A stretch of DNA of 64,000 nt from an uncultured Verrucomicrobiae bacterium (GCA_963706955.1 CAVPOC010000015.1:35700-99699), one strand, 5' to 3'; positions 42,633 through 63,153 are shown, numbered from the stretch's first letter. Numbers and translations are program-made. The notes: a model not told the origin generated them from the letters alone.

Positions 42633-43737
42633 CCTTTCAGCTCATCACGCTCCTCTCCGAAGCGAAATTGACGCCGCGATCGGAGAAGTGATCGACTCTG
42701 GTGCCTTCGCGGGCGGACCGTTCGTCGACGGATTTCGAAGAGCAGCTTCGCAGCCTATTGCGGTTGCAAATATTGCCATCGGGGTGGGAAGCGGCACGGA
42801 TGCTCTTTGGCTTGCACTGCTCGCCTGCGGAGTCGGTCCCGGAGACGAAGTGATCACCGTCCCGAACACTTTCATGGCGACCGCAGAGGCGATCACCTAC
42901 TGCGGCGCCAAGCCGGTGTTCGTCGACGTTGACGCGCTGACCTACACGATGGACCCTACTCTGATCGAAGACGCCATCACTTCGCGAACGAAAGCGGTCA
43001 TTCCCGTTCACCTTTTCGGTCAGCCGGCCGACATGGATCCGATTGTCGAGATCGCACGCTCGCACGGTCTTGTTGTGATCGAGGACGCCGCCCAGGCCCA
43101 TGGAGCCGAATACAAGGGACGACGCGTCGGTTCGCTCGGCGACGCAGGCTGCTTTAGCTTTTATCCTGGCAAGAATCTCGGCGCGTTCGGCGAGGCCGGC
43201 GCCGTCGTTACGAGCGATCGCGAGCTGCAGAAGAAAATTCGAATTCTAAGAGATCACGGTCAGATCCAGAAATACCATCATGCCATGGTTGGCTGGAACG
43301 CCGAATGGACGGCATTCAGGCGGCCGTGCTCGGAGTAAAGCTCCGCCACCTCGAAAAGGGAAACGAACTTCGGCGTTCACACGCCGCCAAGTATGATGAG
43401 GCTCTGCAGCGATATAGAGGAACTCGTGACGCCCTACACGGCCGATTACGCCCATCACGTCTATCACATCTACGCGGTCCGTGTTCCTCGGAGAGACGAG
43501 ATCATTGCCAATCGCTCGCCGAAATGGGTGTCGCCTGTGGCATTCACTATCCGGTGCCCGATCCATTTGCAGCACGCCTATCAGAGCCTCGAATACGAGA
43601 TTGGCGCGTTCCCGATCGCTGAGAGAGCTGCGCATCAATTCATTTCGTTGCCAATGTTCCCCGAGTTAACCTCCGGGCAAATTGAAATCGTCATCAAGGG
43701 CCTGAAGGAAGCTGTCGCAAACTGCGCGCTTGCCTGA
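42613..43737 (+). CDS. DegT/DnrJ/EryC1/StrS aminotransferase (WbpE/GnnB-like), copy 1, several frameshifts
   Basis: [30 protein letters not shown] (PLP Lys) and SLPMFP motifs spread over several frames. Confidence 0.87.
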
Positions 43738-43767
43738 CACTTCCGACTCGCGCGCACGTCCGTTCTC

Positions 43768-44888
43768 ATGACGATCGACCAGCTCGTAACCGAGGTCCCT
43801 GCATCCGGAGGGATCGACGCTCGTCGTCCGCCGACTTTCGACGAGCTTGTCGAGATACGCGTTGTCGATCCCACTTGCGATCCGAGTTGGGATCGGCTCG
43901 CAAGCTCGCATCCCGACTTCACCTTCTTCCACTGCTCCGCCTGGATGCGGGTGCTGTGCAAGACATACGGTCATAAACCGCTCGCCTTTTGCTGTTCCCG
44001 ACGGGGTCAGCCCAGAGCCTTGCTGCCGCTCGTTGAAGTCACAAGTCGCCTGACAGGAGACCGGGGGTGTCGGCCTTCCCTTCACGGACTTTTGCGATCC
44101 GCTTTTCTTTGACGGCTGCGATCCAAGCATAATCGTCGCGAATCTCTGCGCCTTTGCCCAAATACGCGGCTGGAAGCACTTCGAAATTCGCGGAAGGCTG
44201 CCAACCAATCTCCCTCCTCGATCCTCACTCACGTTTCACGGCCATTCGCTTGACCTTCGCGGTGGTGCAGAAGCTCTTTTCGCCAAATTCGCAAGCCCCG
44301 TCAAGCGTGCGATCCGCAAGGCCGAACAAAGCGGCCTATCCGTCCGGCTAAGCACTTCAGAAGGCGGCGATGCGCGAGCTTCTACCGACTCCACGCTCGC
44401 ACGCGACGCCGGCATGGCCTACCGCCTCAGCCGTTTGCTTTCTTTTCGAAACATTCACAGTGAAGTAATCAAGCCAGGCTTGGGATTCGTTGTCTTGGCG
44501 AAAAACGCGTCCAAAACCGTAGCCGGAGCGGTCTTCTTCTATACCGCCACGACCGCAGTATTTAAGTTCGCTGCTTCCGACGAGCGTTACTCGCACCTTA
44601 GACCCAACAATCTGGTCATGTGGCGAGCGATTCAAGAGCTTTCACGCCGTGACATCGGAATACTTCACCTCGGTCAGAACCTCGCGCGGCGACGAAGGAC
44701 TCAGGCGTTTCAAGTTGGGCTGGGGAGCAGTAGAAGAGCCAATCAATTACTTTCGCTTCGATGTCCGGGCGAATCGTTGGACTACTACAACGGATAAAGC
44801 TTCGGGGACGCATAACGCAATTTTTTCGCGGTTGCCTCTGGCCATCAACCGCCTGATCGGCGCGGTGATCTACCCGCATTTGGACTAA
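43768..44888 (+). CDS. GNAT/FemAB-like acyltransferase (cell-surface polysaccharide associated), frameshifted
   Basis: WD......FFH...W, (S)LPFTDFC, RAIRKA, RPNNLVMW..I and GLRRFKLGWG motifs across frames. Confidence 0.78.
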
Positions 44889-44934
44889 GCTCCAAGCTTG
44901 CCCTCCACTCTCTCAACCAACTGTCCGCCTAGCC

Positions 44935-47505
44935 TTGAGCGAAGGATCTAACTCCTCAGCAGTGTCCCAGCAAAAACCCACAGCACCTCCTCCTAGCTTA
45001 ACTGTGCACGACGTTCTTTACGTGCTTTTCAAACACAAGTGGAAGATCCTCTTCTGCTCTGCCATCGGCATTTGTGCCGCCGCAAGCGTCTTTCTTCTTC
45101 GCGTCCCGGTCTTTGAATCGGAGGCCAAACTGCTTGTGCGCTACGTTGTCGATACCAGCGCTATCGATCAAGTCGAGTCCCGCGCAACGGTAGGTTCCTC
45201 CAGTGAAAATCTCATCAATTCCGAGGTGGAGATTCTCACGAGCTGGGATCTAGCGATGCAGGTTGCAAAGGCAGTGGGTCCTGCGCGCTTGCTCCCGAAA
45301 TCTGAGGACGCTACCGATCTAGCCAAGGCCGCCCGCAGTATCCGCTTGGACATGATGGTGACCGCTCTCAAGGGCACGAATATTATCATGGTTTCTTATA
45401 AGAACCCTGATCCCGAGCTTGCCACTCTCGTCTTGAAAGAACTCATCAGCCGATACTTTACCAAGCATCTGGACGTCCACCGCTCGGCTGACGCCTTCAA
45501 TTTCGTAGCGCAACAGAGCGATGAGGTCCGCGCGCGTTTAAACCAGACCGAGCAGGAGTTAAAACAGCTTAAGGGTGAAGCGGGAATTACTTCCCTAAGC
45601 GAAAGCATAACAAATCTCAGCATGGGTCTAAAGAAAACCCGCGAGGAGCTTCAGGCTTCCGAAGCAGAACTTGCGGAACAGAGAGCCGCCGTTCAAGAGA
45701 TCGAGAAAGCACTCACTGCGAGAGAAGAAAAGTTACCCAAAGTTCCGGAGCCGAATGAAAATGCTGAAGCGATTCAGCAATACCATTCTGTCGTAGATCG
45801 CCTTCGCCAGTTTCGCGAAACGCAACTTGCGCTTGTCCTCAAAAACCAGGAAAAGCCCGATCGCTTCCCGACCGAGAGAATGGAGGGCATTCGGCAAATG
45901 CGCAGCAATTCTTGGGAGCCGCAGAGTCGTTCAAGCGAGCTATCCCGCTCAAGCGAGATAGCATCTCTCGGAAGAGAAAAGTTTATCGGGACGCAGCGAG
46001 AGGATGCGCACGCGCTGGCGCGGGAGCGTTATCGTCGTCAAAATGACACCGGTTTCGCCTACCAAGGAAATAAGAAGAACTTCGATACGCTGGTCAAGGA
46101 GGCCGAAGAGGAGATCCTCGGACGGAAAAACATTCCGGTCCAGGAAGCCAAAGAATCGCAAGCTGAGTTGGTGAAACTCAACCAGATGCAGATTGAAAGT
46201 CTTGAGAAGCAGCGAATCGAATTAGAGCATAAGTTTCCGAGAATCGCCGAATCTGTTCCCATTTCTGCTGACAATCCCCGATCCGACATTTCGTCGGAGC
46301 GTGCCCGCTTGCAAGTTGATCGGTCCAAATTAGAGGTGGATCGCTCTCGTCTTGCTGGCATTGAAGCTAGAAGAGAAGCCCTGAAGTCTCGGCTCAGCGA
46401 TCTCGGGACTCAGATGAAACTTCTCTCTGATATTGGACCTCGAATCGAGCAGCTCCAGCGAACCAAGGAAATTGAAGAGAACAATTACAAGTACTTTCAA
46501 GCCAGCCTTGAGAAGGCTCGTGTCGACGAAGCCTTGGATCCATCTAAGATGCCCAATATCAGCATCGTGCAAAGCCCGTCCACAGCGTTCAGGGTTACGG
46601 GAACGATGAAAAAGATCGTGCTCGGATTGGCTGGCGGAGGCATAGGCTTAGGTATCGGCCTGGCTTTGTTGATCGAAATAATCTTGAATCGCACGATCAA
46701 ACGGCCACTCGAGCTCGAAACGCTCTTAGGCCTTCCTATCTGGCTCTCTATTCCCTACCTGAATGGAAGCAATCGCTTTCGTCTTAATGGCAGAGCCCGC
46801 TTGCGTCTCCCATGGCCTCGCTCTAAAGATAGGTGGCTTGCCACTCATCAGGAGAACGGAAACGGCCAGGCCGCGCCATGGGAGTTCGATCATCCAATAC
46901 GAGGCTTTGCCGAAACAATTCGAGATCGTCTGATCCTCTCTTTCGAGCTCAATGGGGTGAACCATAAACCGAAGCTCGTCGCCGTGACTGGATGCCCGCA
47001 GGGAGCTGGAACTTCGACGATTAGCGCGGGCATTGCTGCCGCCCTTTCGGAAACGGGAGATGGAAAGGTTCTGCTCGTGGATATGAACGTTGGCCGTCCT
47101 GAGGTCCATCCGTTCTTCCAGGGAGCGCCAGCATGCTCGCTTGCAGAGGCCTTGGTCGGGGCGCCTGCACCGGCTGGAGAGAATCTCTATCTCGCGGTAG
47201 CAACGCCTGGCAATGGAAGGCGGAACCAGGTTATTCCAAAAAGGTTCTACGAAATGATGCCACACCTCAAGGCAAGCGAGTTCGATTACATCATTTTCGA
47301 CATGCCGCCCCTGAATCAAACCAGTGTTACCCTGGCAATGTCCGCTTGGATGGACAAGGTGCTCGTCGTCGTTGAAGCTGAAAGAAGCGATAGGGACTTT
47401 GTGAAGCGCACTTATGCTGAACTTCTCGCCTGCCGAGCCAACGCGTCGGTCATTTTCAACAAGGTTCGGCGATACACGCCGAAATGGCTGGGAGCAGAAA
47501 CATAA
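44935..47505 (+). CDS. Wzc/GumC-like polysaccharide co-polymerase with degenerate BY-kinase domain
   Basis: N-terminal TM, INSEVEILTS, long coiled coil, second TM, VLLVDMN and IIFDMPP motifs. Confidence 0.85.
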   Translation: MSEGSNSSAVSQQKPTAPPPSLTVHDVLYVLFKHKWKILFCSAIGICAAASVFLLRVPVFESEAKLLVRYVVDTSAIDQVESRATVGSSSENLINSEVEILTSWDLAMQVAKAVGPARLLPKSEDATDLAKAARSIRLDMMVTALKGTNIIMVSYKNPDPELATLVLKELISRYFTKHLDVHRSADAFNFVAQQSDEVRARLNQTEQELKQLKGEAGITSLSESITNLSMGLKKTREELQASEAELAEQRAAVQEIEKALTAREEKLPKVPEPNENAEAIQQYHSVVDRLRQFRETQLALVLKNQEKPDRFPTERMEGIRQMRSNSWEPQSRSSELSRSSEIASLGREKFIGTQREDAHALARERYRRQNDTGFAYQGNKKNFDTLVKEAEEEILGRKNIPVQEAKESQAELVKLNQMQIESLEKQRIELEHKFPRIAESVPISADNPRSDISSERARLQVDRSKLEVDRSRLAGIEARREALKSRLSDLGTQMKLLSDIGPRIEQLQRTKEIEENNYKYFQASLEKARVDEALDPSKMPNISIVQSPSTAFRVTGTMKKIVLGLAGGGIGLGIGLALLIEIILNRTIKRPLELETLLGLPIWLSIPYLNGSNRFRLNGRARLRLPWPRSKDRWLATHQENGNGQAAPWEFDHPIRGFAETIRDRLILSFELNGVNHKPKLVAVTGCPQGAGTSTISAGIAAALSETGDGKVLLVDMNVGRPEVHPFFQGAPACSLAEALVGAPAPAGENLYLAVATPGNGRRNQVIPKRFYEMMPHLKASEFDYIIFDMPPLNQTSVTLAMSAWMDKVLVVVEAERSDRDFVKRTYAELLACRANASVIFNKVRRYTPKWLGAET

Positions 47506-47913
47506 GGGGATATTCCGAAGCTCTAAGGGGCTGACACAGTTGCACTGCAAACGCGGTCTTCAACAGTTCAGCTCTCGGGGCTTCACTTCTGACTCTCGCC
47601 GAGAGCTGAGCGAGATCCAAGTTTGCGTTAACTATCGCTCGCCCATACGCCCGCTTAGCAACGCTGATGACAGCCTCTAGAGGTTAGTCGGAAATTGCCG
47701 CACAAAAGAGATTAGTTGCAGCGCATATGGCGCACATTTGCACCCGCAATGGACGCAAAGTTAGGTCTCGAACTGGACCGGCGATTCAGAAACCGCACGG
47801 ATCGATGTTTTCTGAATGCGATTTCATGATCATTGTTACCTTCTTTCAAAAGAACGCCAAGTAATCCGACGCGTTCAGCTCTTCAGCTTCTTTTCTGCAT
47901 TCCTACTCTGCTG

Positions 47914-48952
47914 GTGCTTTTAAATAGCCTCTACTTTCGCCTGAAGCCATTCATACCGCGGCGAATCCGACTCAATGTTCGGCGGTGGTTCGTTCTGCGA
48001 AAGCTGTCACAACTCGACGAAGTGTGGCCGATTATGCCGGGTTCAGACCGCGTTCCGGTCGACTGGCCCGGCTGGCCCGAAGGAAAGCAGTTCGCCTTTG
48101 TGCTGACACACGACGTCGAAAGCCAGCGTGGACTCGATTATGTCAAGGACTTGGCCCAACTGGAAATGACATATGGTTTCCGATCGTGCTTCAACTTTAT
48201 CCCGGAGGGTCCATACTCCGTTTCGTCCGAACTTCGGTCCTGGTTAATCGACCATGGTTTCGAGGTGGGTGTTCATGATCTCTACCACGATGGCCACCTC
48301 TTTTCCTCGCGCCAAGAGTTTTGCCGAAGGGCCAAACGAATTAATGAGATTCTGAAAGAATGGGGCGCGGTCGGATTTCGCTCCGGCTACATGCTGCGCA
48401 ATTTGGACTGGATCAGCGAGCTCGATATTGCTTACGATGCCTCCACCTTTGACACAGATCCGTTTGAGCCGCAGCCCGAGGGAGTAGAGACCATCTTTCC
48501 GTTTTGGCGTCACTTCGATGGCAACGATCGCGGTTACATGGAACTGCCGTATACCATGGCTCAGGATTCCACGCTGTTTCTTTTACTCCGTGCGAACAGC
48601 ATCGACGTTTGGAGAACCAAGCTCGACTGGCTTGCTAGTCAAGGAGGCATGGTGCTCCTCAACGTGCATCCGGACTACGTGGACTTCGCTGGTCACGGCG
48701 ATTCCTCCCGCTACCCTATCGCTCGCTACCAGGAGTTGCTCTCGGTACGTCCATCGTTCTTACGACGGTCTCGTCTGGCATCCCCTGCCGCGCGAACTAG
48801 CGGCTTACTGCGCCGATTTTCGACCCAAGCATTCGCGTCAGTGTTTGAACGATTCCCGATCCCGACAACAGGCAGTCTTACCGTCTCCCTCTCTAACCAT
48901 CTCGTCTCTTCTCTGGGCCATCGGCAACGGTTGGCAGAATCCCGGCATATGA
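47914..48952 (+). CDS. Polysaccharide deacetylase-like (CE4/NodB-like) protein, frameshift at ~48748
   Basis: LTHDVE, VHDLYH, GFRS, YDAS and HPDY motifs. The corrected C-terminus (YVHRSY...WHPLPRE) ends at TGA 48952, overlapping the GT4 ATG. Confidence 0.75.
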
Positions 48953-50251
48953 ACCTTCTCACCGAGCATGGCCCGGGCGGGGCATCATCTTCCGAACTTG
49001 AAGCCAGACGAGCGGCGGTCGTCCTCTTCTCCACGTATCCAGCCGATCCGCGACCCCGTCGAGCAGCGGAAGCGTTGTTGGATCACGGATTTCATGTCGA
49101 GGTGATCTGTCTTCGCGACGACGACGCCAAAGAGGTGGCAGACGAATTCTTCAACGGCGTAAGGATCACAAGGGTCCCCTTGGCACATCGGCGGGCAGGA
49201 AAGCTCAACTATATCGCGCAATACGCGGCCTTTACCTTCATTGCGGGCGCTATCCTCGCGCTCCGTTCATTACGTCACCGCTATCATCTTGTGCATGTCC
49301 ACAACATGCCCGATTTCCTCATCCTTAGCGCACTCGTTCCGAAGTTGCTCGGTGCGCGTGCGATCCTCGATCTCCATGATCCCATGCCTGAGCTGATGAT
49401 CACAATCTACAGCCTTGGTCACCAGAGCCTCCCTGTCAGGTTTCTCCAGATTGTCGAAAGGCTCAGTGTTCGATTTGCGGATTCGGTCATCACCGTCAAT
49501 GAGGCCTGTAAGAAGATTTTTTCCGCGCGCAGCTGTGCGCCATCCAAAGTCACGGTGATTATGAACTCACCGGATCCAGATATTTTTCGTTATCATTCCG
49601 TCGATTCCGAGCCCACCGTTCGTCGCGATATTTCTAAGCCCTTCGTGATCATGTCACCATGGCTCGCTTGTCGAACGGCACGGCTTGGACGTGGCAGTCG
49701 CCGCAGTGGACCGAGTCCGGGAATCGATCCCGAACGCTGAATTGCTGATTTACGGTCGAAGCACGGAATTTCTCGTTCGCGTATTGGCTTCGATCGAGAA
49801 GACTCCGCTGAGCACGGCGGTTCGCTATCTTGGTCCCAGGAACTTGGAAGGCATCGTCGAAGCGATTCGCAATTGTGACATCGGAGTGATCCCTAATCGA
49901 CGGAGCCTTTTCACGGAACTCAACACTCCGACGCGCATTTTCGAGTACATTTCCCAGGGCAAACCAGTGATCGCTCCGCGCGCTCCGGGAATCCTCGACT
50001 ACTTCGACGAACAAGATCTTGTCCTCTTTACGCTGGGTGATGCCGACGACCTCGCGAATAAGATCGATTACGTTTTCACGCACCCGGAAGAGGTCAGCAG
50101 GATTGTTCGGCGCGGCCAGACTGTCTATCACGCCCACGAATGGAAGAGCGAACGTGCGCGGTTCATTCGGTTGGTCGATGGGCTTGTCGGCGCCCATCGC
50201 CCCATCGCGCAGGTCAGCAAGGCCTCCGCCATCCTAAGAGGCAACGAATGA
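48949..50251 (+). CDS. GT4 family glycosyltransferase, frameshift at ~49655
   Basis: DPRPRR.A, HVHNMPD, DLHD.MPE, (Y)HGS.VERHGLD and PTRIFEY...GKPVI motifs. Confidence 0.85.
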
Positions 50252-51906
50252 TCGGCGTTGTCGCCAAGACGAGCGAAAGTGAGGCCGTCGCGGAATTCTT
50301 TCAACTTTTCAAGACGCCCTGGGAGTTCGCTCGTCGCGGGTTGCAGTGACGACGTTCTATTGAGCACTGTTGCTGAGCGAGTGGAGGCCTCGTGCCGCTT
50401 GCTCCTCCTCTTCAATGGCGACCAGACGTTTTTCGACGCCTGAACACAAGACTTCCATGAAGTCGCAATCTGGTGGCACCGTCACGTGTCGCGGTCGACG
50501 GATCCCGATATACGGAACTCTGACAACGTTTTCGACCAGCGGGTCCCTTACTTTGATCGGAGACTCGAACTCCGAGCCTGTGGCGGTCCTGGAAGAGCGG
50601 GGCCGGCCTGATCACCGTCCGAGTTGGCTACGACCTCCTCAGCGAGGTGCAACGCTTGCTTAGTGTTGGTCAACCGTCCGTAAACGCCGCCATCCCTACA
50701 CTGGACGAACACATCTCTTCATTGCGCCATTGGATTATCTCGGCGGGACTTCCCTTGGTGGAGGTTCCTCCCGTTCCTGCCGGTTACAGCTTCGTGACCT
50801 GTCTGACCCACGATGTTGATCATCCTGCTCTTCGGCATCATCTGTGCGACCATACCATGTTCGGCTTCGTCTATCGCGCGACCGTGGGAAGCTTGCACAA
50901 CGTTCTGACCGGAAGAAGAAGCCCGGCATACCTTCTCAAAAACTGGAAAGCGGCCTGCCTTCTTCCCCTCGTGCACTTGGGACTGGTCAGGGACTTCTGG
51001 CGTGATTTTGACCGCTACCTCGAAATTGAGGCCGGTTACGCTTCGACGTATTTCGTCATTCCTCGCAACAACTATTGTGGCCGTATCGCAAAGGGCTTTG
51101 CTCCCCGGACACGTGCCTGCCGCTACACGGTGACCGACGTGCTGCCTCAGCTGAGAAAGATCATTGCGGCAGACTGCGAAGTCGCGGTCCATGGGGTTGA
51201 TGCCTGGCTTGATGCCGAAGGAGGCCGCCAGGAAAAAGATGCCATCGCGGCGGTCGTTGGAACCACCGACCTGGGCGTGCGGATGCACTGGCTCCTTTTC
51301 GACGAACTCTCGCCCGGCAGACTGGATCGAGCAGGATTCAGCTATGACTCGACTGTGGGCTACCGCGAAACCGTCGGTTATCGAGCCGGGACGCTTCAAC
51401 CATACAAACCTCCGGAGCTAACCGTCTCCTGGAGCTCCCTCTGCACATCATGGATACTGCATTGTTCTATCCCGACTATTTGAATCTTGCCGAGGACGAA
51501 GCTCGACCGCTGGTTTGGAAACTTATTGACGATGCGGAGCGAATGGGTGGCACACTGACCATTAACTGGCATGATCGAAGCATCTCTCCCGAAAGGCTGT
51601 GGGATGACTTCTATCTAAATCTCCTTCGTGAGGTTCAGGCGCGCAAGGCGTGGCTGCCAACTGCTTCACAGGCTGTCGCTTGGTTTAGGCAACGTCTGTA
51701 CTGTGGCTATTGAGTCCTCTCCAGTCGACCGGAACTCTACACGCATTAGAGTCTCATTCGAACCCTGCAACTCACTCCCAGGTCTGCTGCTCCGGGTCTA
51801 CGAGCCCGGCCCGGGCTCGTTAGTGGATCAAGCGCGGACGCCAACCTCCGTGCCATTTCGCGACATTCCCCTTACGAAAACCACTGAACTCGCTCTCGCC
51901 GTTTGA
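50248..51906 (+). CDS. Polysaccharide deacetylase-like protein 2, multiple frameshifts
   Basis: MIGVVA...EFFQLFKTPWE start (ATGA overlap); THDVDH, HG, RMHWL, YDST and WHDRS motifs. Confidence 0.68.
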
Positions 51907-52910
51907 ACTCTAACGGTACGGTTCTTGCGCAGGTTGGTTGTGGTTATTGGGGTCCGAATCTTCTTCGGAATTTCTCCTCCTTGCCGAATTGCCGGGTCAA
52001 ATACGTTGTCGATTCCAGTCCGGAGCGACGTGCCTTTGTCGAAGCCAACTTTCCTCGTACCACCGCAGTGGATTCGTGCGCCCCGGTCCTCTCTGATCCT
52101 GAAGTTGGGGGTGTCATCATTGCCACACCCGCGGGAACGCACTTCCGGATCGCCAAAGAGGCGCTGCTCGCGGGCAAGAGCGTTTTCGTCGAAAAGCCAT
52201 TGGCGACCAAGGTCGCGGAAGTTGATGAACTGGGGGAAATCGCCGCCGCGCGCGATCTCATTGTCATGGCAGGCCATACCTTTCTCTTTAACGCGGCCGT
52301 GCGCTACGTGAAACAGCTGCTGGATGCAGGTGAGTTGGGTGAGATCCGATACATCTATAGCCAACGATTAAACCTCGGCCGCATCCGACCGGATATTGAT
52401 GCCCTTTGGAACTTCGCGCCGCACGATATCAGCATTATTCAATACTGGCTTGGCGATCCCACCCCCATAGCGGTTCACCGGGTCGGGATGGATTTCATTC
52501 AGAACGGCATTGATGATGTCGTCTTTCTTACCGTCGTGTATCCGAACAAGGTGATTGCCAACATTCACGTCAGCTGGCTCGACCCCCAGAAAGTGAGAAA
52601 GATGATCGTAGTCGGATCACGCAAGATGGTCGTTTATGACGATATCGCTGATGACAAGATCGCCATCTACGACAAGGGTATCGATAAGAGAGCGATTCTT
52701 GGTCAAAATATGGACTTTGACCATCCCCGGCCCGAGCAGTTTAGTTATCGCAGCGGGGACCTCTTAATGCCGCACGTTAATTTTACCGAGCCTCTGCGGT
52801 CCGAGGCACAGACCTTTGTCGACTGCTTGCGTAACGGAGGCTTGCCCATCACCGGTATTTCTCATGCCCGGAAGGTCGTGTCGATTCTTGAGCGCGCTAA
52901 GCCGCTCTAA
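51903..52910 (+). CDS. Gfo/Idh/MocA NDP-sugar oxidoreductase, copy 2
   Basis: GCGYWGPNLLRNF, EKP, WNFAPHD and SWLDP.KVR motifs; paralog of the 41024 gene. Confidence 0.9.
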   Translation: MNSNGTVLAQVGCGYWGPNLLRNFSSLPNCRVKYVVDSSPERRAFVEANFPRTTAVDSCAPVLSDPEVGGVIIATPAGTHFRIAKEALLAGKSVFVEKPLATKVAEVDELGEIAAARDLIVMAGHTFLFNAAVRYVKQLLDAGELGEIRYIYSQRLNLGRIRPDIDALWNFAPHDISIIQYWLGDPTPIAVHRVGMDFIQNGIDDVVFLTVVYPNKVIANIHVSWLDPQKVRKMIVVGSRKMVVYDDIADDKIAIYDKGIDKRAILGQNMDFDHPRPEQFSYRSGDLLMPHVNFTEPLRSEAQTFVDCLRNGGLPITGISHARKVVSILERAKPL

Positions 52911-52915
52911 CGCTC

Positions 52916-53407
52916 ATGCCACACAATGTCACGAGAGAGTCAGCCTCGATACCGACCCTTCGCAAGGCCGGGATAGTCGACGTGGCTTTTGGCCAACGGG
53001 TCACCGTCGTCGAACCCGTCAACCTTTATGGATGCACAATCGGAGATGATTGTTTCGTTGGACCATTCGTCGAGATCCAATGCGGCGTGACGATTGGACA
53101 TCGCTGCCGCGTCCAGTCTCACGCCTTCATTTGCGAGCTTGTGAAGATTGGCGACGACTGCTTTATCTCGCACGGTGCCATGTTCATCAATGACCTCTTC
53201 TCTCTTGGCGGCCCCGCTAAGAGGCGACAAGATCTCTGGCGCTCAACCACCGTCGGTAATGCGGTCAATATTGGTACGAATGCAACGGTTCTGCCAGTGA
53301 CTATTTGCGATCACGTAGTGGTGGGTGCCGGCGCCGTGATTACGAAAGATATCGTGCAGGCTGGTATCTACGCCGGCAACCCGGCTCGTTTTCTTAGGGC
53401 GATTTAA
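52916..53407 (+). CDS. Hexapeptide-repeat N-acetyltransferase, copy 2
   Basis: VNLYGC.IG, SHAFICE, FIND and GAGAVITKD...GNPAR motifs. Confidence 0.9.
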   Translation: MPHNVTRESASIPTLRKAGIVDVAFGQRVTVVEPVNLYGCTIGDDCFVGPFVEIQCGVTIGHRCRVQSHAFICELVKIGDDCFISHGAMFINDLFSLGGPAKRRQDLWRSTTVGNAVNIGTNATVLPVTICDHVVVGAGAVITKDIVQAGIYAGNPARFLRAI

Positions 53408-53437
53408 CTTATGCTCACTACTTTACCACGGCGTTCG

Positions 53438-54541
53438 ATGACCGTGCCTTTTGTCGATCTTCACGCCCAATATCTTGGTATCAAACCCGAGATCGACGCG
53501 GCCATCGCGGAAGTTATTGCAGACTCGGCGTTTATTCGAGGGCGTCATGTGGACGCCTTTGAAAAGGCATGGGCGGGGACGCTTGGAGTTAGGCACTGCG
53601 TTTCCTGCGCGAACGGCACTGACGCGCTGTACATCGTCATGCGTGGGCTCGGCATCCAGCCGGGCGACGAAGTCATCACGACGGCGCACTCCTGGATTTC
53701 CACGAGCGAGACAATTACGCAGGCAGGTGGCAGAGTGATCTTTTGCGATACGGATAACGAAACCTTCAATATCGACCCAACGCTGATCGAGGCAAAGATC
53801 ACGCCTCGGACGGTAGGCATCATTCCGGTGCATCTCTACGGCCAGCCAGCGGATATGGCCGCGATCATGGCGATTGCCCGGAAGCATGAGCTGTGGGTGA
53901 TCGAGGACTGCGCCCAAGCCCACCTGGCGAAATTCAAGGGTCAATCTGTGGGAACGTTCGGCGATGCGGCAACCTTTTCCTTCTATCCGGGCAAGAATCT
54001 CGGCGCCTATGGCGATGCGGGATGCCTGGTGACCAATAGAGACGACCTGGCAGAATGGTGCGGCACCTACGCCCGGCACGGCGGCAAGGGCGAACACGTC
54101 ATGGAAGGAATCAACAGCCGGCTGGATGGGCTGCAGGCCGGCGTGCTCAATGTGAAACTGCCGCATCTCGCCGCCTGGACGGAAGCACGCCGCAAGGTGG
54201 CCGCGCGTTACGACCAATTGCTGGCCGGTATTCCGGACCTGGTCACACCGGCCGTGGCCCCGGACTGCGAGCATGTCTATCACCTGTATGTCATCCGGAC
54301 CAGCCGCCGCGACGCCTTGAAAAAGCATCTGGCCGATGACGGCATTGCCACCTCCCTGAATTATCCCAAGGCGCTGCCTTTCTATCCCGCCTATGCGTAT
54401 CTCGGTCATCGACCGTCCGATTTCCCGGTCGCCCACGCGAACCAATCCCGCATCCTTTCCCTGCCGATGTATCCTGAAATGACCGGAGCCATGGTCGAGT
54501 ACGTCGCTGATCGAATTGCTGGGTTTCTCAATGACGAGTAG
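53438..54541 (+). CDS. DegT/DnrJ/EryC1/StrS aminotransferase, copy 2
   Basis: [34 protein letters not shown] and SLPMYP motifs. Confidence 0.93.
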   Translation: MTVPFVDLHAQYLGIKPEIDAAIAEVIADSAFIRGRHVDAFEKAWAGTLGVRHCVSCANGTDALYIVMRGLGIQPGDEVITTAHSWISTSETITQAGGRVIFCDTDNETFNIDPTLIEAKITPRTVGIIPVHLYGQPADMAAIMAIARKHELWVIEDCAQAHLAKFKGQSVGTFGDAATFSFYPGKNLGAYGDAGCLVTNRDDLAEWCGTYARHGGKGEHVMEGINSRLDGLQAGVLNVKLPHLAAWTEARRKVAARYDQLLAGIPDLVTPAVAPDCEHVYHLYVIRTSRRDALKKHLADDGIATSLNYPKALPFYPAYAYLGHRPSDFPVAHANQSRILSLPMYPEMTGAMVEYVADRIAGFLNDE

Positions 54542-55667: not shown

Positions 55668-56956
55668 TGCGAGTCGCGATTCCAGAAAGTGCTGTCACCG
55701 CGAATACGAAGGCCGTCCGCGGGGCTCTCGATCGCTTTCTACGGTGGCTGGACGAATACGGCGAAACTTCCTGGGATCACCAAAGTTACTTTGCCGGTGC
55801 GTATGGTGGTCGGGCCAAGGCTCTGTACTACCGGCACAAGCTCCTCGGCACGCTCGCCGTGGCCCCGATGATCTTCTCGGAGGCGTTTCTCCCGGCGGCC
55901 CGACGCTTGTTTCACCGGAGGGTCCGGTTTCCGATTGCAGACGCCCACTACGCCATGGGGTTCGCTTTCCTTTATGAAACAGAAGGTGCACCGGAACATC
56001 TCGCGCGGGCCATTCATTTCCTCGAGGAACTGAAAAAGTTCCGGTGCGGAGGATTCCGGGAATATTGTTGGGGCTACCCATTCGACTGGGTCACCCGCAA
56101 TGGCGTGATGAAGCGGAACACCCCGCTCATCACATCCACCCCCTATGTCTATGAGGCCTTCCTGCAGGTCCATCAGGTCGCGCCGCGCGACGAATGGCTG
56201 GAGATCCTCGCCTCCATCGTCCGCCACGCCTGTCAGGACATCAAGGATTTCCCGTTCCCGGCTCGGAACGCGCCCGCACGTGCTCCTACAATCCGTTTGA
56301 CACAGGCGGGGTGGTCAACGCCTCGGCCTACCGCGCGGCGATGCTGACCAGCGCCTCGCGCGTGTTCGACAGCGAGGAATACTGGGCAATCGCGGAGCGC
56401 AACCTGTGGTTCGTCCTGGAATCGCAGAACGACGATGGTTCCTGGCCCTACGCGAAGGATAGCGTGCGCGATTTCGTGGATCACTTTCACACCTGCTTCG
56501 TGATGAAGGCGCTGGCGAAGATCCACCCTGACGGGTCATGCGGAAACGCTCGCGGCGCTCGAGGCGGGGCGTCGACTACTACCTTGCGAATCTCTTCGAC
56601 GCCGACGGTCTGCCGAAGCCGTTCTCGGGGCACCGCGGCTGACGGTCTACAAGCGGGAACTCTACGACTGTGCCGAGTGCATCAATCTCTGTCTGCTCCT
56701 CCGTGATCGGTTTCCCCGCTTGCAGGCGACGCTCGAGACTGTCGTCACGGGCATCTGCGAAGACTGGGTCAAGCCGGACGGCTCATTTCGTTCCCGCCGG
56801 CTGCATTTCGGCTGGGACAACGTCCCGATGCACCGCTGGGCGCAGTCGCAGATGTTCCGCGCGCTGGCGTTGTATCTCCGTGAGACTGCGCGTAGTTCGG
56901 CGCGTGGAGGCGTTCGGTCGCAATACCGTGAAAGAGAATGTTTTCAAAGGTTTTAA
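55667..56956 (+). CDS. Uncharacterised alpha/alpha-barrel-like protein of polysaccharide loci, frameshifted
   Basis: CWGYPFDW, V.NA, QNDDGSWPY, DHFHT and RWAQ..MF.AL motifs across frames; TGATG coupling to GT2. Confidence 0.65.
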
Positions 56957-57398
56957 GAACCGAGGACCGCAGCAGTTTGCACTGTCGTTGCCGGGTGGCT
57001 ACAGGATGCGTGGGGCATTGCATCGCATGCGCGGTGTGAAGATGGGAGAAAACGTATGGATCGGTTACGGAGCATTGATCGAGACCGGCTATCCCGAACA
57101 TGTAACCATCGGCAACAACGTTATCATAGGCATCCGTGCAACCGTCCTGGCGCATTTTCAAGAAGTGATGGGCGTGACTATCAAGGACGACGTTTACGTG
57201 GGCGCGTGCGCGGTGATTTTGCCCGGGGTAACCATTGGCGAAGGCGCAGTGATTAGTGCGGGTAGCGTGGTAACCTCGTCAGTGCCGCCGATGACCGTGG
57301 TGCAGGGAAATCCCGCCAAACGTATCGCGAAATGTGGCATCCCGCTCCGGCTTAACACGTCCCGCGCCGAATTCATGCGGTGTCTCAAGAGCCTTTAG
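56928..57398 (+). CDS. Hexapeptide-repeat (LbH) acyltransferase
   Basis: RGVKMGENVWIG...ILPGVTIGEGAVISAGSVV...GNPAK; GTG at 56928. Confidence 0.85.
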   Translation: MKENVFKGFKNRGPQQFALSLPGGYRMRGALHRMRGVKMGENVWIGYGALIETGYPEHVTIGNNVIIGIRATVLAHFQEVMGVTIKDDVYVGACAVILPGVTIGEGAVISAGSVVTSSVPPMTVVQGNPAKRIAKCGIPLRLNTSRAEFMRCLKSL

Positions 57399-57416
57399 GA
57401 GGCTTGGAAGTTATTA

Positions 57417-57680
57417 ATGGAGAACAATCAAATCACCGCGGAATTGCGGCAGTTCATCAGAGAGCGCTATGGCGTTCCGGAAAATGATCCCGACTTCAAC
57501 GACGATGTTGACCTGTTCAACTACGGTTACATTGATTCCTTCGGTGCCGTGGCTTTGATAAGTTTCATCGAGAAACGGTTTGGCATCCGATTCCACAACG
57601 CCGACTGGGCCGCATTTCCATTGAGTACAATCAACCAGATCACCAACTTTGTCGCCAAACGCGGGAAAGGAGAGGTTTAG
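57417..57680 (+). CDS. Acyl/aminoacyl carrier protein (DltC-like)
   Basis: DLF..G.IDSFG.V.L...IE.RF.I with the phosphopantetheine-accepting Ser; 87 aa. Confidence 0.9.
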   Translation: MENNQITAELRQFIRERYGVPENDPDFNDDVDLFNYGYIDSFGAVALISFIEKRFGIRFHNADWAAFPLSTINQITNFVAKRGKGEV

Positions 57681-57682
57681 CC

Positions 57683-58880
57683 ATGTCCTACAAAATCGCG
57701 ATTCCCGTCAGTAGACTTGACGCCGAGTCCCGGTCCCAACTGGAATACTCGCTTTCTTTCGCCTCGGAAGAAATCGTCAGCTACAGGGTCGCCGAGGAGA
57801 ATTCACTCGTGGAGGTCGAAGTGGCCTCGGAAGCCGCGCGTGAGCCGGTGACGCAAAGAGTGCAGGAGCTGGTCAAGCGCTACCAGCAGCGTGAATTCGG
57901 CCTTGCCAAGAACCTCGAATACCAGTGCGAGCGCGATCTGCCGGTGTTTGACGCTTGGTCGCAGTTACTCGAACGCCGCTGGGTCACGCAGGTCGGGCAG
58001 GGCCACGTCATCCTGCGCGGCCCTGCCGCCGAACTCCTCAGTCTGATTGAGAGGAAGGTCAATGACTTCGGTGCGCACTTTCAGGCTCAGCGCGAGTTTT
58101 ATCCTTCGACGATTCTCTGCAAGACACTGGACCGCATCCACCACTTCACCTCGTTCCCGGAGCACATTGATTTCGTTGCGCATTTGAAGGGCGACTTGGA
58201 CGTGTTGAACAAGTTCTCAGCGGAATGTCGTGAGCAGGGCTGGTCGCCGGCCCATCACGAGGGTCGCATGGGCGACAACGATTTTGCTATCTGCCCTTCC
58301 TGCTGCTACCACTGCTACGAGGGCATGGAGAACTGGCAGATCGAAGGGCCTGGCCGTTGCACGACGATGGCGGTGAATTGCCACCGTTACGAGGGCGCCA
58401 ACCACCGCACCATGACCCGGCTGCGCGCCTTCACTCGAACGCGACGTGGTCTGGGTAGGCCACCCGCGCTACGTCATGGAAGGCCGCGCGAAAGCCGAAG
58501 AACTCATCGTGCAATGGGCCAAGGACTGGGAAGTGGTCGGCACTTTTGAGACGGCCAACGACATGTTCTTCACACAGGACTATGCGGTGAAGGCGTCGTT
58601 CCAGCGCCAGCAGCAGGCCAAAAAAGAACTACGGCTGCTGATCCCGTTTGAGAAGCAATCCATCAGCGTATTTTCCTCAAATTTCCATTCGACGACGTTT
58701 GGCAAAGCATTCAACATCACCCAGGGTGGCAAGCCCGCCACGAGCGCCTGCGTGGGTTGGGGCTACGAGCGTTGGGTGTTTGCCATCTTCTCACAGTTCG
58801 GCCTGGATTGGCAAATGTGGCCAGAACGACTGCGGGAAGATCTTATCCATCATGGGAAAACCAAGCAACCCTGCGCATGA
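57683..58880 (+). CDS. Class II aaRS (atypical SerRS) homolog, amino acid:[carrier protein] ligase-like; frameshift at ~58436
   Basis: SFPEH, PSCCYHCY, motif 2 C.RYE......RL..F..RD.V and motif 3 SACVGWGYERW. No SerRS tRNA-binding coiled coil is evident. Adjacent to the ACP. Confidence 0.82.
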
Positions 58881-58889
58881 CGCCTGTGC

Positions 58890-59394
58890 ATGACGACAAT
58901 CGAGGAATTGAAGCCTCCCGATTTTGAAGCGGTGGCGGGCTGGCTCTCCCGACCTGAAATGAACCGGTGGCTCACCGGCCGAGTGGCGCGGTAAGTCGGC
59001 CGATCCTGTGCTGATTGGCGTCATGCTGCGTAACAAGAAGAACCGGGTGTTTCTTGTCCGCTGGAATGGCCAGCCGGCCGGGTTGGTGGCGCTCGCGGAC
59101 ATCGACGCCGGGGATGCCACCGCAATGGTTTGGTATCTCTTGGGCGACGCTTCCTTATCGGGTCGCGGCATCACCTCGACGGCTGTGAAGTTGATGGCGC
59201 AAAAATGCTTCCTGGAACTCAAGCTCGAATCGCTGTACGCCTGGGTGATGGAGGATAACGCGGCTTCGACCAAAGTGCTGCGGAAGGCTGGCTTTCGTGA
59301 GGCGGGGCGCCTGCGTCGTGCGGCGAATTCCGACGGCCTGCCTGTAGATCGGATCTATTTCGACCTGCTTGCGAGCGAGTGTCCCGTGAGTTGA
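58890..59394 (+). CDS. RimJ/RimL-type GNAT N-acyltransferase, frameshift at ~58980
   Basis: MTTIEELK.PDF..V..WL, then GRGI acyl-CoA motif and N.AS.KVL.KAGF..G.LR. Confidence 0.83.
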
Positions 59395-61240: not shown

Positions 61241-63153
61241 ATGTGCGGCATTGTCGGACACCTTAACTTCGCCCCCGTCGCACCTGTGGACCGCGAGACG
61301 ATCGTTCGAATGGCCCGGTCTATCAGCCATCGGGGGCCGGACGACGAGGGCTATTATTTCGATGGGAATCTCGGGCTCGGGTTCCGGCGGCTTTCGATTA
61401 TCGACCTCTCGGGGGGGCACCAGCCGATGTCCGATGCTGCGGAGTCCGTGTGGGTCGTGTTCAACGGCGAGATCTACAATTACCTCGAGCTCCGCGCCGA
61501 GTTGGAGCAGTGCGGCCATCAATTTCGGACCCGCTCGGATACCGAGGTGATCATCCACGGTTACCGGGAATGGGGCACGGACGTGCTCAAACGGCTCAAC
61601 GGCATGTTTGGTCTCGCCATCTGGGATGTGCGCCGGCGGCGTCTGGTCGTGGCCCGCGATGCCATGGGCATCAAGCTTGTCTATTATCATGACTCGCAGG
61701 GACACCTGACCTTCGGTTCCGAGATACGGGCGGTGTTGGCCGCGGGAGAAATTGCCCCGGAGGTGGACCCGGTCGCGCTCAATCAGTTCCTGCGCTTCCG
61801 CTACGTGCCGTCACCGCTCACCATGTTCCAGGGCATCCGGAAACTGGCGCCCGGAACCATGCTGGTTGTCGAGGATGGCTGCTGCCGAGAGGAACGGTGG
61901 TACAATTACACCCCGGTCCCGTTCGATGGGCCGCGTGAGGACGAGGAGGCTGTCCGCGAGCTGTTGGATCTTTACCGCGGTGCTGTGAAGCGTCACCTGC
62001 TGAGTGACGTGCCGGTCGGTCTTCTGCTGAGTGGCGGGCTCGATTCCGGCCTGCTGCTCGCCCTCATGAACGAGCATGGTCGGGAGTGGCCGGTGTATAC
62101 TGTGGGTTACGGAGAGGAATTTGAGGACGACGAATTGTCGGACGCAGCCCAAACGGCGCGCCTGTTGGGGGCGAAGTTCACCCCGGTCAAGCTGGATCGC
62201 GCGGAGTATGAACGCTCGTTCGAACGGATCGTGGAGGCGCTCGAGGAACCGGTGACGTCCTCCTCGATTGTGCCGATGTATTTTGTCTGTCAGCGCGCGC
62301 GGCAGGACGTGAAGGTGGCCCTGATTGGCCAGGGTCCGGACGAACTGTTTGCCGGCTACACACGGCATCTCGGTGTGCGCTACGGGGGCCTGTGGCGCGG
62401 GTTGCCGTCGCCCCTGCGTTCGTTTGTTGCTACCGCGGTGTCAGCGTTGCCGCGGAATGAGGCCTTGAAGCGGGGCGTTCACTCACTCGGAACCAGTGAC
62501 CGGTTACAGCGCTATCACGATGTGTTTTCTCTTGCGCCGTTATCGGGCATTGACGCCCTGTTCAGGCGGGACGTGTTGCCCTCCGGGAACGGACACGCGA
62601 CCGTGGGGTATTGGCGCGAACTCGAGCCGCAGATGCGGCACCTCGATGAGCTGGGGGGCTTTCAATTGCTTGAGCTGCGTTCCTCGCTGCCCGACGAGTT
62701 GTTGATGTTCGGCGACAAGATTTCCATGGCGCACAGTCTCGAGGTCCGCGTGCCCTACCTTGACCGAACGGTCGTGGAATTCGCCCAGCGTTTGGGCGCG
62801 GGGTTGATGATTCGGAACGGGGAACGGAAGTGGATTCACCGCCGTGTCTGTCGTGCGTACCTGCCCCCGGAGATTTTGAGACGCAAGAAGCGCGGCTTTG
62901 CTGTGAACGTGGTCGACGGTTGGTTTCATTCGTCTGTCGAGGGCGCGTTTGCCGGAGTTGCTGCGAGACCGGCAGTCGCTGATGTATCGTTTCCTGGAGC
63001 CGACCGCAGTGGAAAGCTTGCTGGATGAACACCGCTCGGGCATGCTAGGACAATCACAAGCTCCTGTTCAGCCTCGCCATGGTCGAGCAATGGCTGCGCC
63101 TCCAGCGCTTCGGCAGCGAATTCTCTCAGATTAGCTCCGCTTCGTTAATTTGA
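61241..63153 (+). CDS. asnB: Asparagine synthase (glutamine-hydrolysing) family amidotransferase; C-terminal frameshifts at ~62945 and ~63050
   Basis: N-terminal MCG, HRGPD, RLSIID, NGEIYN, LSGGLDS, E.RVPYLD and R.K.GF motifs. Confidence 0.9.

Follow-up and report, generated by a model that had tools for sequence, protein, structure and literature searches.

What does a soil bacterium do with a protein resembling seryl-tRNA synthetase (SerRS) that is encoded beside a small carrier protein within a sugar-coat (EPS) gene cluster? We addressed this question on a stretch of 64,000 nucleotides from an uncultured Verrucomicrobiae bacterium (the window), in which the original prediction had placed four tightly packed genes for an LbH acyltransferase, a carrier protein, a SerRS-like protein and a GNAT. 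All four were found there, in that order and on the plus strand (Table 1), and the flanks were likewise as described: GT2, DegT, GFO and LbH genes precede the cassette, and AsnB (61241-63028) follows it. We infer that this cassette loads a small amino acid on the carrier without tRNA and likely delivers it to an EPS sugar of the surrounding locus, a reading to which we assign a probability of about one half.

Table 1. Features of the cassette and its flanks, in window coordinates
Feature	Coordinates	Strand	Basis
Upstream EPS locus part	40204..54541	+	weak family matches, all below cut-off
Conserved 416-aa protein, no assigned function	55673..56905	+	collinear with L004:5960-7210
LbH (hexapeptide-repeat) acyltransferase LbH3, ~156 aa (start codon GTG)	56928..57398	+	Pfam Hexapep E 9e-14
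Dedicated carrier protein, 87 aa	57417..57680	+	PP-binding E 1e-7
Class II aaRS-like aa:CP ligase homolog, 398 aa if read through	57683..58880	+	PDB/NCBIfam/fold
GNAT (Acetyltransf_3 / RimL-MccE type), ~167 aa	58890..59394	+	Pfam Acetyltransf_3
Predicted sugar de-N-acetylase, ~591 aa	59435..61212	+	predicted fold (NDST1/Agd3 architecture)
AsnB-type amidotransferase (WbpS / eps_aminotran_1-like)	61241..63099	+	TIGR01536

Comparison of ligases that join an amino acid to a carrier protein (aa:CP ligases) with true SerRS by profile and by structure favoured the former. The best PDB sequence match of an intact homolog that is 91% identical to the window ligase (P0002) was the aa:CP ligase Bll0957 (E = 2.5e-22), ahead of the M. 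kandleri SerRS (E = 1.5e-13). The best NCBIfam model for the ligase homologs was the aa:CP ligase model NF005479, for which the read-through gene is represented by a score of 126 bits and intact homologs scored 122-129 bits, far below the cut-off of 357, and the two pieces of the window gene 23.7 and 83.1 bits; the serS models TIGR00415 and NF002120 gave 68-101 bits against cut-offs of 490-611. The predicted structure (pLDDT 86.7) could be superimposed on 3MEY (Z 30.5, rmsd 3.0, 292 of 296 residues aligned) and on the core of methanogen-type SerRS (2CIM and 3W3S; Z 31-32, rmsd ~2.5, 303-322 residues, with Z 32 over 322 residues for 3W3S). As predicted, motif 2, motif 3 and the cysteine ligands are conserved: H234-R235-x-E237, G360-x-E362-R363 and C208 are invariant in the 92 family members, and C356 is kept in at least 90% of them. 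C208 aligns with the cysteine of the P-x-x-C-Y segment of Bll0957 and C356 with its G-C-V-A-F-G, and D or E occupies the acidic position that follows motif 2; the zinc site of Bll0957 consists of two cysteines and an acidic residue. The suggestion of a catalytic domain devoid of a tRNA-binding arm was borne out in one part only. No coiled-coil tRNA arm was seen in the model and none of the 92 members matched PF18490 (tRNA_bind_4), but the protein is not bare, having an extra N-terminal domain of ~88 aa (beta-alpha-beta-beta-alpha-beta) for which no match was found. The ~165-aa N-terminal tRNA-binding domain of methanogen-type SerRS appears to be absent from the window ligase; residues 1-88 aligned poorly with those enzymes (rmsd 9.5).

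The Bll0957-type ligases of Bradyrhizobium and Agrobacterium (PDB 3MEY, 4H2S), reportedly characterised by Mocibob et al. in 2010 and 2013, share with the window ligase a class II core that goes back to atypical SerRS, conserved motifs 2 and 3, the zinc-aligned cysteines, the lack of a detectable tRNA arm and a small dedicated carrier encoded next door. Unlike them, the window ligase is only ~23-25% identical in sequence, and its family has the ~88-aa N-terminal domain and the GNAT as a fixed partner. The ligase belongs to a divergent subfamily, whose nearest solved relatives are the Gly:CP ligase Bll0957 and the methanogen-type SerRS cores. Because a bacterial-type serS lies on another contig (G000 C1:97277-98522), and because no ligase homolog was found in 40 relatives or in a 400-genome sample of the phylum, the protein is not the housekeeping SerRS.

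The partners of the ligase were compared across 26 related loci from six phyla; hosts of the family are Verrucomicrobiota, Acidobacteriota, Gemmatimonadota, Planctomycetota, a delta-proteobacterial MAG and Paenibacillaceae. The carrier gene lies directly upstream of the ligase gene in all 25 loci with upstream DNA, and the pairing of the two is obligate. The phosphopantetheine serine is predicted to be S41 (Y-I-D-S-F-G); across 24 orthologs D40, S41 and G43 never vary, the serine lying in D-S-F/I-G. The carrier matched DltC and ACP models weakly and always below the cut-offs, with 28 bits for DltC models (cut-offs 52-68) and 33 bits for an ornithine-lipid ACP model (cut-off 130). The GNAT gene follows in 22 loci and is missing from the other four, and its 3' piece in the window matches Pfam Acetyltransf_3 (E = 1.7e-12). 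The family profile matched 1NSL, MccE (E = 9.5e-11), SpeG, RimL-type enzymes (e.g. 1S7K) and PseH, and an N-terminal motif, W-L-S...N-R-W-L...E-W-R, is specific to the family.

The original prediction had drawn an analogy to the Dlt system, and the relatives make it far stronger than could be seen from the window. In 19 of the 26 loci, a microprotein ending in F-x-Y-x-x-F occupies a fixed position beside an MBOAT gene, and this DltX-like ORF and an SGNH/AlgX-like or P299 partner adjoin the cassette; 17 of these loci also have a DltB-like MBOAT, and 20 of the 26 have an MBOAT no more than 8 kb away. The F-x-Y-x-x-F motif is described for DltX in a passage of PMC12148441. The sole match of three MBOATs tested was TIGR04091 DltB, at 161-184 bits and below the cut-off. 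The partner proteins can be assigned to SGNH only weakly: the ~370-aa proteins gave weak AlgX/GDSL matches, one of six tested exceeding the AlgX cut-off, and P299 had no match. Judged by gene content, most relatives appear to encode a complete Dlt-type machine in which the aaRS-like enzyme replaces DltA, and they would be expected to form an O-ester on the outer side of the membrane rather than an N-acyl sugar. The cassette shares with Dlt (DltA, DltC, DltB, DltX, DltD) the small carrier with a predicted amino acid load, and in relatives also the microprotein, its partner and the MBOAT. It differs in that a class II aaRS homolog takes the place of an ANL-type activating enzyme, in the addition of the GNAT, and in its hosts, most of them diderm soil bacteria that lack teichoic acids, unlike the Gram-positives; no AMP-binding (ANL) gene lies in the cassette, and the one at 13058-14470 is unrelated. 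The Vibrio cholerae AlmEFG system glycylates lipid A with the ANL-type ligase AlmE and the lipid A acyltransferase AlmG. In this Gram-negative bacterium a small amino acid passes from a carrier to a glycolipid of the envelope, which resembles the transfer predicted for the cassette; the class of its ligase differs.

The analogy rests on the relatives because the window itself has no MBOAT or SGNH partner, and no DltX-like ORF was found between 40 and 64 kb; the single MBOAT of the genome is on another contig, unlinked. In a tree of 24 ligases, those from loci with an LbH gene form one clade (100/98), which is sister to the MBOAT-type Verrucomicrobia (100/99). The Verrucomicrobia clade of the window is derived, nested within loci that have the membrane set, and has lost this set. 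Next to the cassette, its members encode an LbH acyltransferase together with an NDST/Agd3-like de-N-acetylase, in a Wbp/Vim-like EPS locus, where Dlt has the MBOAT, microprotein and SGNH protein. An LbH gene adjoins the carrier or ligase gene in 5/5 LbH-context loci with data and in 0/19 with a DltX-like ORF; being confined to one clade, this adjacency reflects one or two evolutionary events. LbH3 is 70% identical over 158 aa to the product of L004:7218-7697. In NCBIfam it matched sugar and maltose acetyltransferases of the acetyl-CoA type without reaching any cut-off, and by this resemblance to ordinary acetyl-CoA O/N-acetyltransferases LbH3 may simply acetylate the polymer.

The gene after the GNAT encodes a predicted de-N-acetylase with a GATase1/ThuA-like N-domain and a CE4-like domain. 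No sequence match was found in Pfam, NCBIfam or PDB, and the model (pLDDT 83.4) provided the assignment: Foldseek returned Agd3 (E = 1.4e-9) and NDST1 (E = 5e-9), and VIA gave Z 13.3 for NDST1 and Z ~11 for CE4 deacetylases on residues 220-457. D232-D233 and H291/H295 are invariant. With 444 homologs this family is much wider than that of the ligase, so its link to the ligase may be incidental. AsnB scored 455 bits with TIGR01536, above the cut-off, and 446 bits with TIGR03108, below the cut-off of 817. Upstream, the EPS locus holds a priming sugar transferase, two GFO-LbH-DegT (WbpB/D/E-like) triads, a FemAB/VimA-like gene, a Wzc-like chain-length/kinase protein, GT4 and CE4-like proteins, with below-cut-off matches to pepcterm_ChnLen, pepcterm_TyrKin, pepcterm_femAB, stp3, EPS_sugtrans and UDP-GlcNAc 3-dehydrogenase. 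The protein immediately before LbH3 had weak Pfam matches to GH127 and pectate lyase only, and a PDB sequence search gave no match.

This gene content resembles the Wbp/Vim pathway of Porphyromonas gingivalis and Tannerella forsythia, the enzymes of which make 2-N-seryl/glycyl-3-N-acetyl (diamino-)uronic sugars according to sections of PMC7468200. The window has WbpB/E/D-like triads, CE4-type candidates, a pepcterm_femAB/VimA-like gene and a WbpS-like AsnB; every Wbp/Vim enzyme type is represented, with all family matches below equivalog cut-offs (VimE 26.5 against 440; pepcterm_femAB 43.8 against 260). Wbp/Vim (WbpA/B/E/D, VimE, VimA, WbpS) includes neither a carrier protein nor an aaRS-like ligase, both of which the window has, and VimA is the presumed transferase, with a donor described as not established. 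The FemAB/VimA-like gene in our locus could also aminoacylate sugars from aminoacyl-tRNA without the cassette.

In the mechanism that we propose, the ligase would form aminoacyl-AMP and then thioesterify the holo-carrier, as Bll0957 does, and the GNAT would acetylate the free amino group of the aminoacyl-carrier. In the window, a cytoplasmic LbH enzyme would stand in for MBOAT, DltX and SGNH, moving the (N-acetyl)aminoacyl group onto an amino sugar whose amine the NDST/Agd3-like de-N-acetylase encoded next door would have exposed. We would then expect an N-aminoacylated residue of the diamino-uronic type, the kind of N-seryl/N-glycyl sugar that sections of PMC7468200 describe.

The original prediction had also offered the GNAT itself as the aminoacyl transferase. 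The aminoacyl-phosphopantetheine arm would then occupy the acetyl-CoA site and the amino acid would pass to a de-N-acetylated amino sugar, LbH3 being an unrelated acetyltransferase. GNAT-fold enzymes such as N-acyl amino acid synthases and Fem enzymes do use acyl-carrier or aminoacyl donors. Only the carrier is a more conserved partner than the GNAT. The GNAT and ligase genes are translationally close, being separated by 9 nt in the window and overlapping by 4 nt in the related locus L004, and the de-N-acetylase gene directly follows that of the GNAT. However, the 19 loci with the DltX-like microprotein and its partner already have a terminal transferase set beside the GNAT, locus L006 keeps the carrier, the ligase and an LbH protein and lacks the GNAT, and the closest characterised GNAT relatives transfer from acetyl-CoA onto amines. 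We therefore regard a transferase role as unlikely. The GNAT more likely caps the amino group, because it is kept in both membrane-type and LbH-type loci and its nearest solved relatives include MccE and RimL-type alpha-amine acetylases. A passage in PMC3817062 describes such enzymes as acetylating the alpha amine of aminoacyl-adenylates; the substrate proposed here differs in being a carrier-bound aminoacyl thioester.

It is less probable still that the aminoacyl-carrier feeds a lipid, a small secondary metabolite or a protein modification and that its position in an EPS locus is incidental. The weak ornithine-lipid ACP match of the carrier and the mobility of the cassette across phyla would fit such a role, as would part of PMC9437257, where aa:CP ligases are said to have no known downstream role. 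Against it, the neighbourhood survey found the cassette among glycosyltransferases, flippases, Wzy and polysaccharide deacetylases or lyases in annotated loci, consistent with the predicted link to glycan genes; MBOAT/SGNH-type polymer acylation genes are coupled to it in 19 of 26 loci, and no condensation, ketosynthase or lipid acyltransferase genes were seen beside it.

If the frame changes in the window were real, the locus would be decaying and the cassette a remnant without product. The aaRS-like gene is split over two frames (57683-58549 and 58446-58880), and most of its best 120 homologs have one uninterrupted ORF, of 394-409 aa. Because homologs have T-Q-R-D where the window reads ACT CGAA CGC GAC, one extra base can be placed at 58436-58439, which agrees with the indel predicted at 58436. 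Direct reading of the sequence revealed a second 1-nt insertion, overlooked in the earlier analysis, in the CC run at 58975-58976, which splits the GNAT gene; tblastn with the 169-aa GNAT of L004 also gave two pieces in different frames. A GNAT start at 59008 was rejected, the true start being the ATG at 58890 upstream of this insertion. The de-N-acetylase gene has one frame change near 59755-59770, the AsnB gene two near its 3' end and the gene at 55673-56905 two, and relative to L004 the region has seven in 7.4 kb (about one per kb). Further genes upstream of the cassette are split, and the cassette is an accessory element, absent from all the relatives searched. Yet neither extra base is present in near-identical contigs of public soil runs: a 481-nt contig of run X1 (depth 3.1) omits one letter at 58437, and contigs of runs X1 and X3 (two studies) omit one at 58975, where X1 may itself be the source sample of the window assembly. 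The absence of the extra bases from these contigs indicates that the ligase and GNAT indels are most likely assembly errors and that both genes are likely intact in nature. Such indels do occur in this assembly, since its essential serS is also split into two frames. Moreover, no nonsense codons or deletions were seen, and identity to intact homologs is 70-90%, so we consider decay very unlikely.

Finally, a second, atypical SerRS that charges tRNA, as the JGI name 'seryl-tRNA synthetase' of many homologs and the methanogen-type core fold might suggest, is hardly credible given the constant adjacency of a carrier gene, the closer sequence match to aa:CP ligases, the normal serS elsewhere in the genome and the failure to find a tRNA-binding arm or tRNA_bind_4 in 92 members.

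Our literature search found no paper describing this system. If the proposed reading is true, a family of enzymes that has lacked a known role would gain a probable one.

The original prediction had placed an LbH acyltransferase (LbH3), a carrier protein, a SerRS-like protein and a GNAT in one tightly packed group, and the gene map agrees with it: all four genes lie on the plus strand, separated by 18, 2 and 9 nt in the order LbH, carrier, ligase, GNAT. The carrier matched the DltC and ACP models weakly, every match falling under its cut-off, and its D40-S41-x-G43 stretch is invariant among 24 orthologs. We rejected the OlsHI ornithine-lipid ACP as a lead for the carrier on account of its weak match (33 bits against a cut-off of 130).

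Features of the cassette and of the neighbouring exopolysaccharide (EPS) locus, in window coordinates
Feature	Position	Strand	Remarks
S8 peptidase and GAF protein, just upstream of the EPS locus	within 35967-39460	-	
Two LytTR-domain proteins, also just upstream of the EPS locus	37816-38211; 38957-39460		
EPS locus	40.2-64 kb		priming sugar transferase, Wzc-like protein, GT4, GT2, CE4-like proteins, FemAB/VimA-like gene, WbpS-like AsnB, two GFO-LbH-DegT triads (WbpB/D/E type)
GFO-LbH-DegT triads	41133-43737; 51903-54541		
Conserved 416-aa soluble protein, between GT2 and LbH3	55673-56905		L004:5960-7210 in the collinear comparison locus; faint GH127 and pectate-lyase matches
LbH acyltransferase (LbH3)	56928-57398	+	GTG start at 56928; Hexapep E 9e-14
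Carrier protein, 87 aa	57417-57680	+	PP-binding E 1e-7
aaRS-like ligase gene	57683-58880	+	two frames: 57683-58549, 58446-58880
GNAT	58890-59394	+	ATG start at 58890, not 59008

The first piece of the ligase retrieved 366 homologs, of which the best 120 were mostly single ORFs of 394-409 aa. The closest one, the intact and 91% identical P0002, served as a stand-in for the window ligase in searches and in structural modelling. We followed the earlier proposal to compare the protein with aa:CP (amino acid:[carrier protein]) ligases and SerRS by HMM and structure. The aa:CP ligase Bll0957 ranked first among solved structures (E = 2.5e-22), and the aa:CP ligase model NF005479 ranked first in NCBIfam with 126 bits, far under its equivalog cut-off of 357. 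Motif 2 (H234-R235-x-E237), motif 3 (G360-x-E362-R363) and C208 are invariant in 92 aligned sequences, at least 90% of which also keep C356; the two cysteines line up with the Zn ligands of Bll0957. The first ~88 residues (window 57683-57946) form a beta-alpha-beta-beta-alpha-beta domain that is family-wide and absent from Bll0957, and for which a structure search gave no convincing fold match. Within the aa:CP-ligase/atypical-SerRS clade, the ligase forms a divergent subfamily outside the curated equivalog. It is also a rare accessory gene: neither 40 related genomes, including 18 from the same genus, nor 400 genomes sampled from the phylum gave a match. In one database homolog (P0069, 349 aa), the carrier runs into the ligase in one ORF, which then stops, either by natural fusion or by a frameshifted assembly.

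Scanning one genome per species with two exact peptide patterns, which relatives can escape, yielded 26 loci in Verrucomicrobiota, Acidobacteriota, Gemmatimonadota, Planctomycetota, a delta-proteobacterial MAG and Bacillota. We counted partner genes by tblastn with proteins of the window or of the loci. The carrier lies directly upstream of the ligase in all 25 loci with upstream DNA, and a GNAT follows the ligase in 22 of the 26 (it is absent in L006, L015, L023 and L024). An MBOAT was found within 8 kb in 20/26 loci, and 19/26 encode a conserved partner protein of ~370 aa (299 aa in Bacillota). The same 19 loci contain a small ORF with one hydrophobic stretch and a C-terminus of ..F-(V/I)-Y-V-N-F or ..F-I-Y-E-G-F, which adjoins the MBOAT; the bare motif gave about six further chance matches in ORFs at unrelated sites. 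F-x-Y-x-x-F is known from DltX, where it is described as the 'acyl shuttle' motif (PMC12148441). The only NCBIfam match of three MBOATs tested was DltB (TIGR04091), with scores of 161-184 bits where the cut-off is 375. The ~370-aa partner showed weak AlgX/GDSL matches, above the cut-off only in L017, and the Bacillota version gave no match. In two loci (L009:5216-6565 and L014:5545-6660), the DltX-like peptide is fused in frame to the DltB-like MBOAT; it is a separate small ORF in the other 17. The MBOAT, the DltX-like ORF and the weakly SGNH-like partner at the cassette therefore make up complete Dlt-like sets. These relatives share with Dlt a carrier, a DltB-like MBOAT and a DltX-like motif, and differ from it by an aaRS-like ligase instead of DltA and by the additional GNAT. 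Judged from gene content, the aaRS-like ligase occupies the place of DltA in these sets, with the GNAT added.

In the window itself, we found no MBOAT, DltX-like microprotein or SGNH-like partner protein, and the single MBOAT of its genome lies on another contig. To place this variant, a midpoint-rooted ligase tree was calculated from 24 sequences, with P0002 representing the window and the broken L020, L025 and L027 omitted. L003-L006 and P0002, which have the LbH gene or the gene order of the window, form one clade (100/98); L003, without upstream DNA, was assigned from the order of the genes downstream. This clade is sister to the MBOAT-type Verrucomicrobia L007/L008 (100/99) and is nested among sequences from loci with the DltX-like ORF. 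On the midpoint-rooted tree, the loss of the MBOAT/DltX/SGNH set in the clade of the window is thus apparently derived. Each of the five loci of this type for which data exist (window, L004, L005, L025 and L006, the last with the LbH gene where the GNAT would be) has an LbH acyltransferase gene abutting the carrier or the ligase; none of the 19 loci with the DltX-like ORF does. Because the five loci are close kin, this adjacency counts as one or two events. A long AlgI-type MBOAT lies a few kb further upstream in L005 and in the genome of L004 (L005:262-3829; G435 C3:44001-44675), in the latter apparently on the same contig, past the flank. The upstream genes of L005, a Ca. Udaeobacter locus, comprise one for a 592-aa AMP-binding enzyme and a 79-aa ORF besides the AlgI-type MBOAT, which ends in F-I-Y-F-Q-F; they may represent another acylation module, separate from the cassette. 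The record of L004 is labelled uncultured Bifidobacteriaceae. Its ligase belongs firmly within the Verrucomicrobiota clade, the locus and the window are collinear, and the taxonomic label or the binning looks wrong.

The window-type loci have in common a ~591-aa protein encoded 3' of the GNAT, which gave no family match and no PDB sequence match and in whose sequence no hydrophobic segment was seen. With 444 homologs, it is not specific to the cassette. Foldseek with its predicted model (pLDDT 83.4) retrieved the Agd3 carbohydrate deacetylase at E = 1.4e-9, the NDST1 N-deacetylase at E = 5e-9 and also PelA, and VIA-align aligned 421 residues with NDST1 (Z 13.3, r.m.s.d. 6.9). Residues 220-457 resemble CE4 deacetylases (Z ~11), residues 1-216 are a GATase1/ThuA-like domain, and D232-D233 and H291/H295 are invariant.

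We put a probability of roughly 0.4 on the following reading: a tRNA-synthetase catalytic core would have been recruited for the activation step of a second Dlt-type pathway, a widespread one that adds amino acids or N-acetylamino acids to exopolysaccharides in diderm soil phyla and Paenibacillaceae, and in the Verrucomicrobia clade of the window the carrier-ligase-GNAT core would have been rewired from transfer at the membrane by MBOAT/DltX/SGNH to cytoplasmic LbH transfer onto a de-N-acetylated amino sugar. The ligase would form an aminoacyl-adenylate and then a thioester on the holo-carrier, and the GNAT would acetylate the free alpha-amine of the aminoacyl-carrier. In the clade of the window, an amine that the NDST/Agd3-like enzyme has freed would then receive the residue from the LbH enzyme; most other lineages would use the DltB-, DltX- and SGNH-like proteins to carry it through the membrane onto a hydroxyl of a polymer. 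We infer each step, and the whole three-step sequence is the most likely one.

The reading that survives best beside it exchanges the roles of two enzymes, with the GNAT as the terminal aminoacyl transferase and LbH3 as a plain acetyltransferase. For an LbH enzyme as the transferase, a TIGR02353 match at 44-52 bits is a hint only; the Pls family includes LbH-type domains that take an aminoacyl donor from a carrier. Against solved structures, the GNAT-family profile matched 1NSL (E = 1.3e-17), MccE (E = 9.5e-11), SpeG, RimL-type entries and PseH. We favour the GNAT as an amine acetylase because it is kept with both the membrane and the LbH transfer sets and because relatives acetylate aminoacyl amines; the alpha amine of aminoacyl-adenylates is described as the target of MccE and RimL (PMC3817062).

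Less probable is that the aminoacyl-carrier serves a non-glycan product. The survey of homolog neighbourhoods that the original prediction had proposed bore out the linkage to glycan genes as well as to the carrier: glycosyltransferases, flippases, Wzy, polysaccharide deacetylases and lyases surround the cassette in related loci. In the window, many EPS-locus genes showed weak matches to XrtA/PEP-CTERM-associated models, and the presence of two triads suggests either a pair of distinct diamino sugars or a duplication. In its set of enzymes, the EPS locus appears to correspond to the Wbp/Vim pathway, whose product is given as a 2-N-seryl- or 2-N-glycyl-3-N-acetyl-(gluc/mann)uronic acid or amide (PMC7468200). 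The 416-aa protein, without a PDB sequence match, lies downstream of the cassette in L005 and L025. The S8, GAF and LytTR genes are possible regulators of the EPS locus.

A decayed locus could also account for the interrupted genes. The ligase has one extra base at 58436-58439, where the window has ACT CGAA CGC GAC and homologs read T-Q-R-D, as the originally noted indel at 58436 implied, and the GNAT has a second 1-base insertion in the CC run 58975-58976. Contigs from public soil-metagenome runs, 95-99% identical, were aligned with the window. One letter is omitted at 58437 in X1 (one contig, 481 nt, depth 3.1), a run that is perhaps the window's own sample, and at 58975 in contigs of X1 and X3, which stem from two studies; neither X2 nor X4 spans 58437, the X2 contig stops at 58975, and these two runs say nothing about either insertion. 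In the same assembly, the essential bacterial-type serS (G000 C1:97277-98522; L038, L039) is itself split into two frames covering model positions 1-230 and 230-417, which argues for indel errors of the assembly in essential genes too. Compared with the collinear and intact L004, window 55.7-63.1 kb contains seven frame changes across five genes, and by Pfam coverage the upstream DegT, FemAB-like and GT4 genes are also split. The frequency of frame changes in the EPS locus (40204-64000) is roughly one per kb, and the window stops where the contig does; the housekeeping genes of window 1-35 kb showed no obvious splits in ORF and Pfam tables. We read the cassette indels as assembly errors in a badly polished contig end.

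That the aaRS-like protein charges tRNA is the weakest reading. Its next-best solved relatives are type-2/methanogen SerRS (E = 1.5e-13 and 9e-7). In keeping with the originally noted lack of an evident tRNA-binding arm, there is no coiled-coil arm in the AlphaFold model (92-sequence alignment, pLDDT 86.7, pTM 0.82) and no PF18490 tRNA_bind_4 match in any of 92 family members. Residues ~70-90 to 393 of this model superimpose on both M. kandleri SerRS (Z 32.0, r.m.s.d. 2.6, 322 aligned) and Bll0957 (Z 30.5, r.m.s.d. 3.0, 292/296 aligned). In one Atlas neighbour cluster, 17% of the members carry tRNA_bind_4.

The enzymes of the aa:CP ligase family have been known since 2010, and their biological role was still called unknown in a 2022 review (PMC9437257). 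In the open-access literature, we found no paper linking them to MBOAT, Dlt-like genes or glycan modification; PMC12930378 deals with DltA alone, and PMC5388404 just cites the 2010 work (Mocibob 2010). MBOAT/SGNH acylation pathways other than Dlt are said in a 2025 paper to lack a carrier protein (PMC12148441), a statement that the gene neighbourhoods described here contradict. They give the family a concrete, testable job, tRNA-free aminoacylation of the envelope or exopolysaccharide, and because three cultured Paenibacillaceae among the Bacillota hosts all carry the MBOAT form, it is open to laboratory testing. Dlt-type chemistry would thereby extend to abundant, mostly uncultured soil phyla, and the window would add a membrane-independent variant. 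If true, N-aminoacyl sugars could arise by a carrier-dependent path as an alternative to VimA/FemAB, and the variant would point to a possible donor for such sugars as those of Wbp/Vim, a pathway without an established amino-acid donor.
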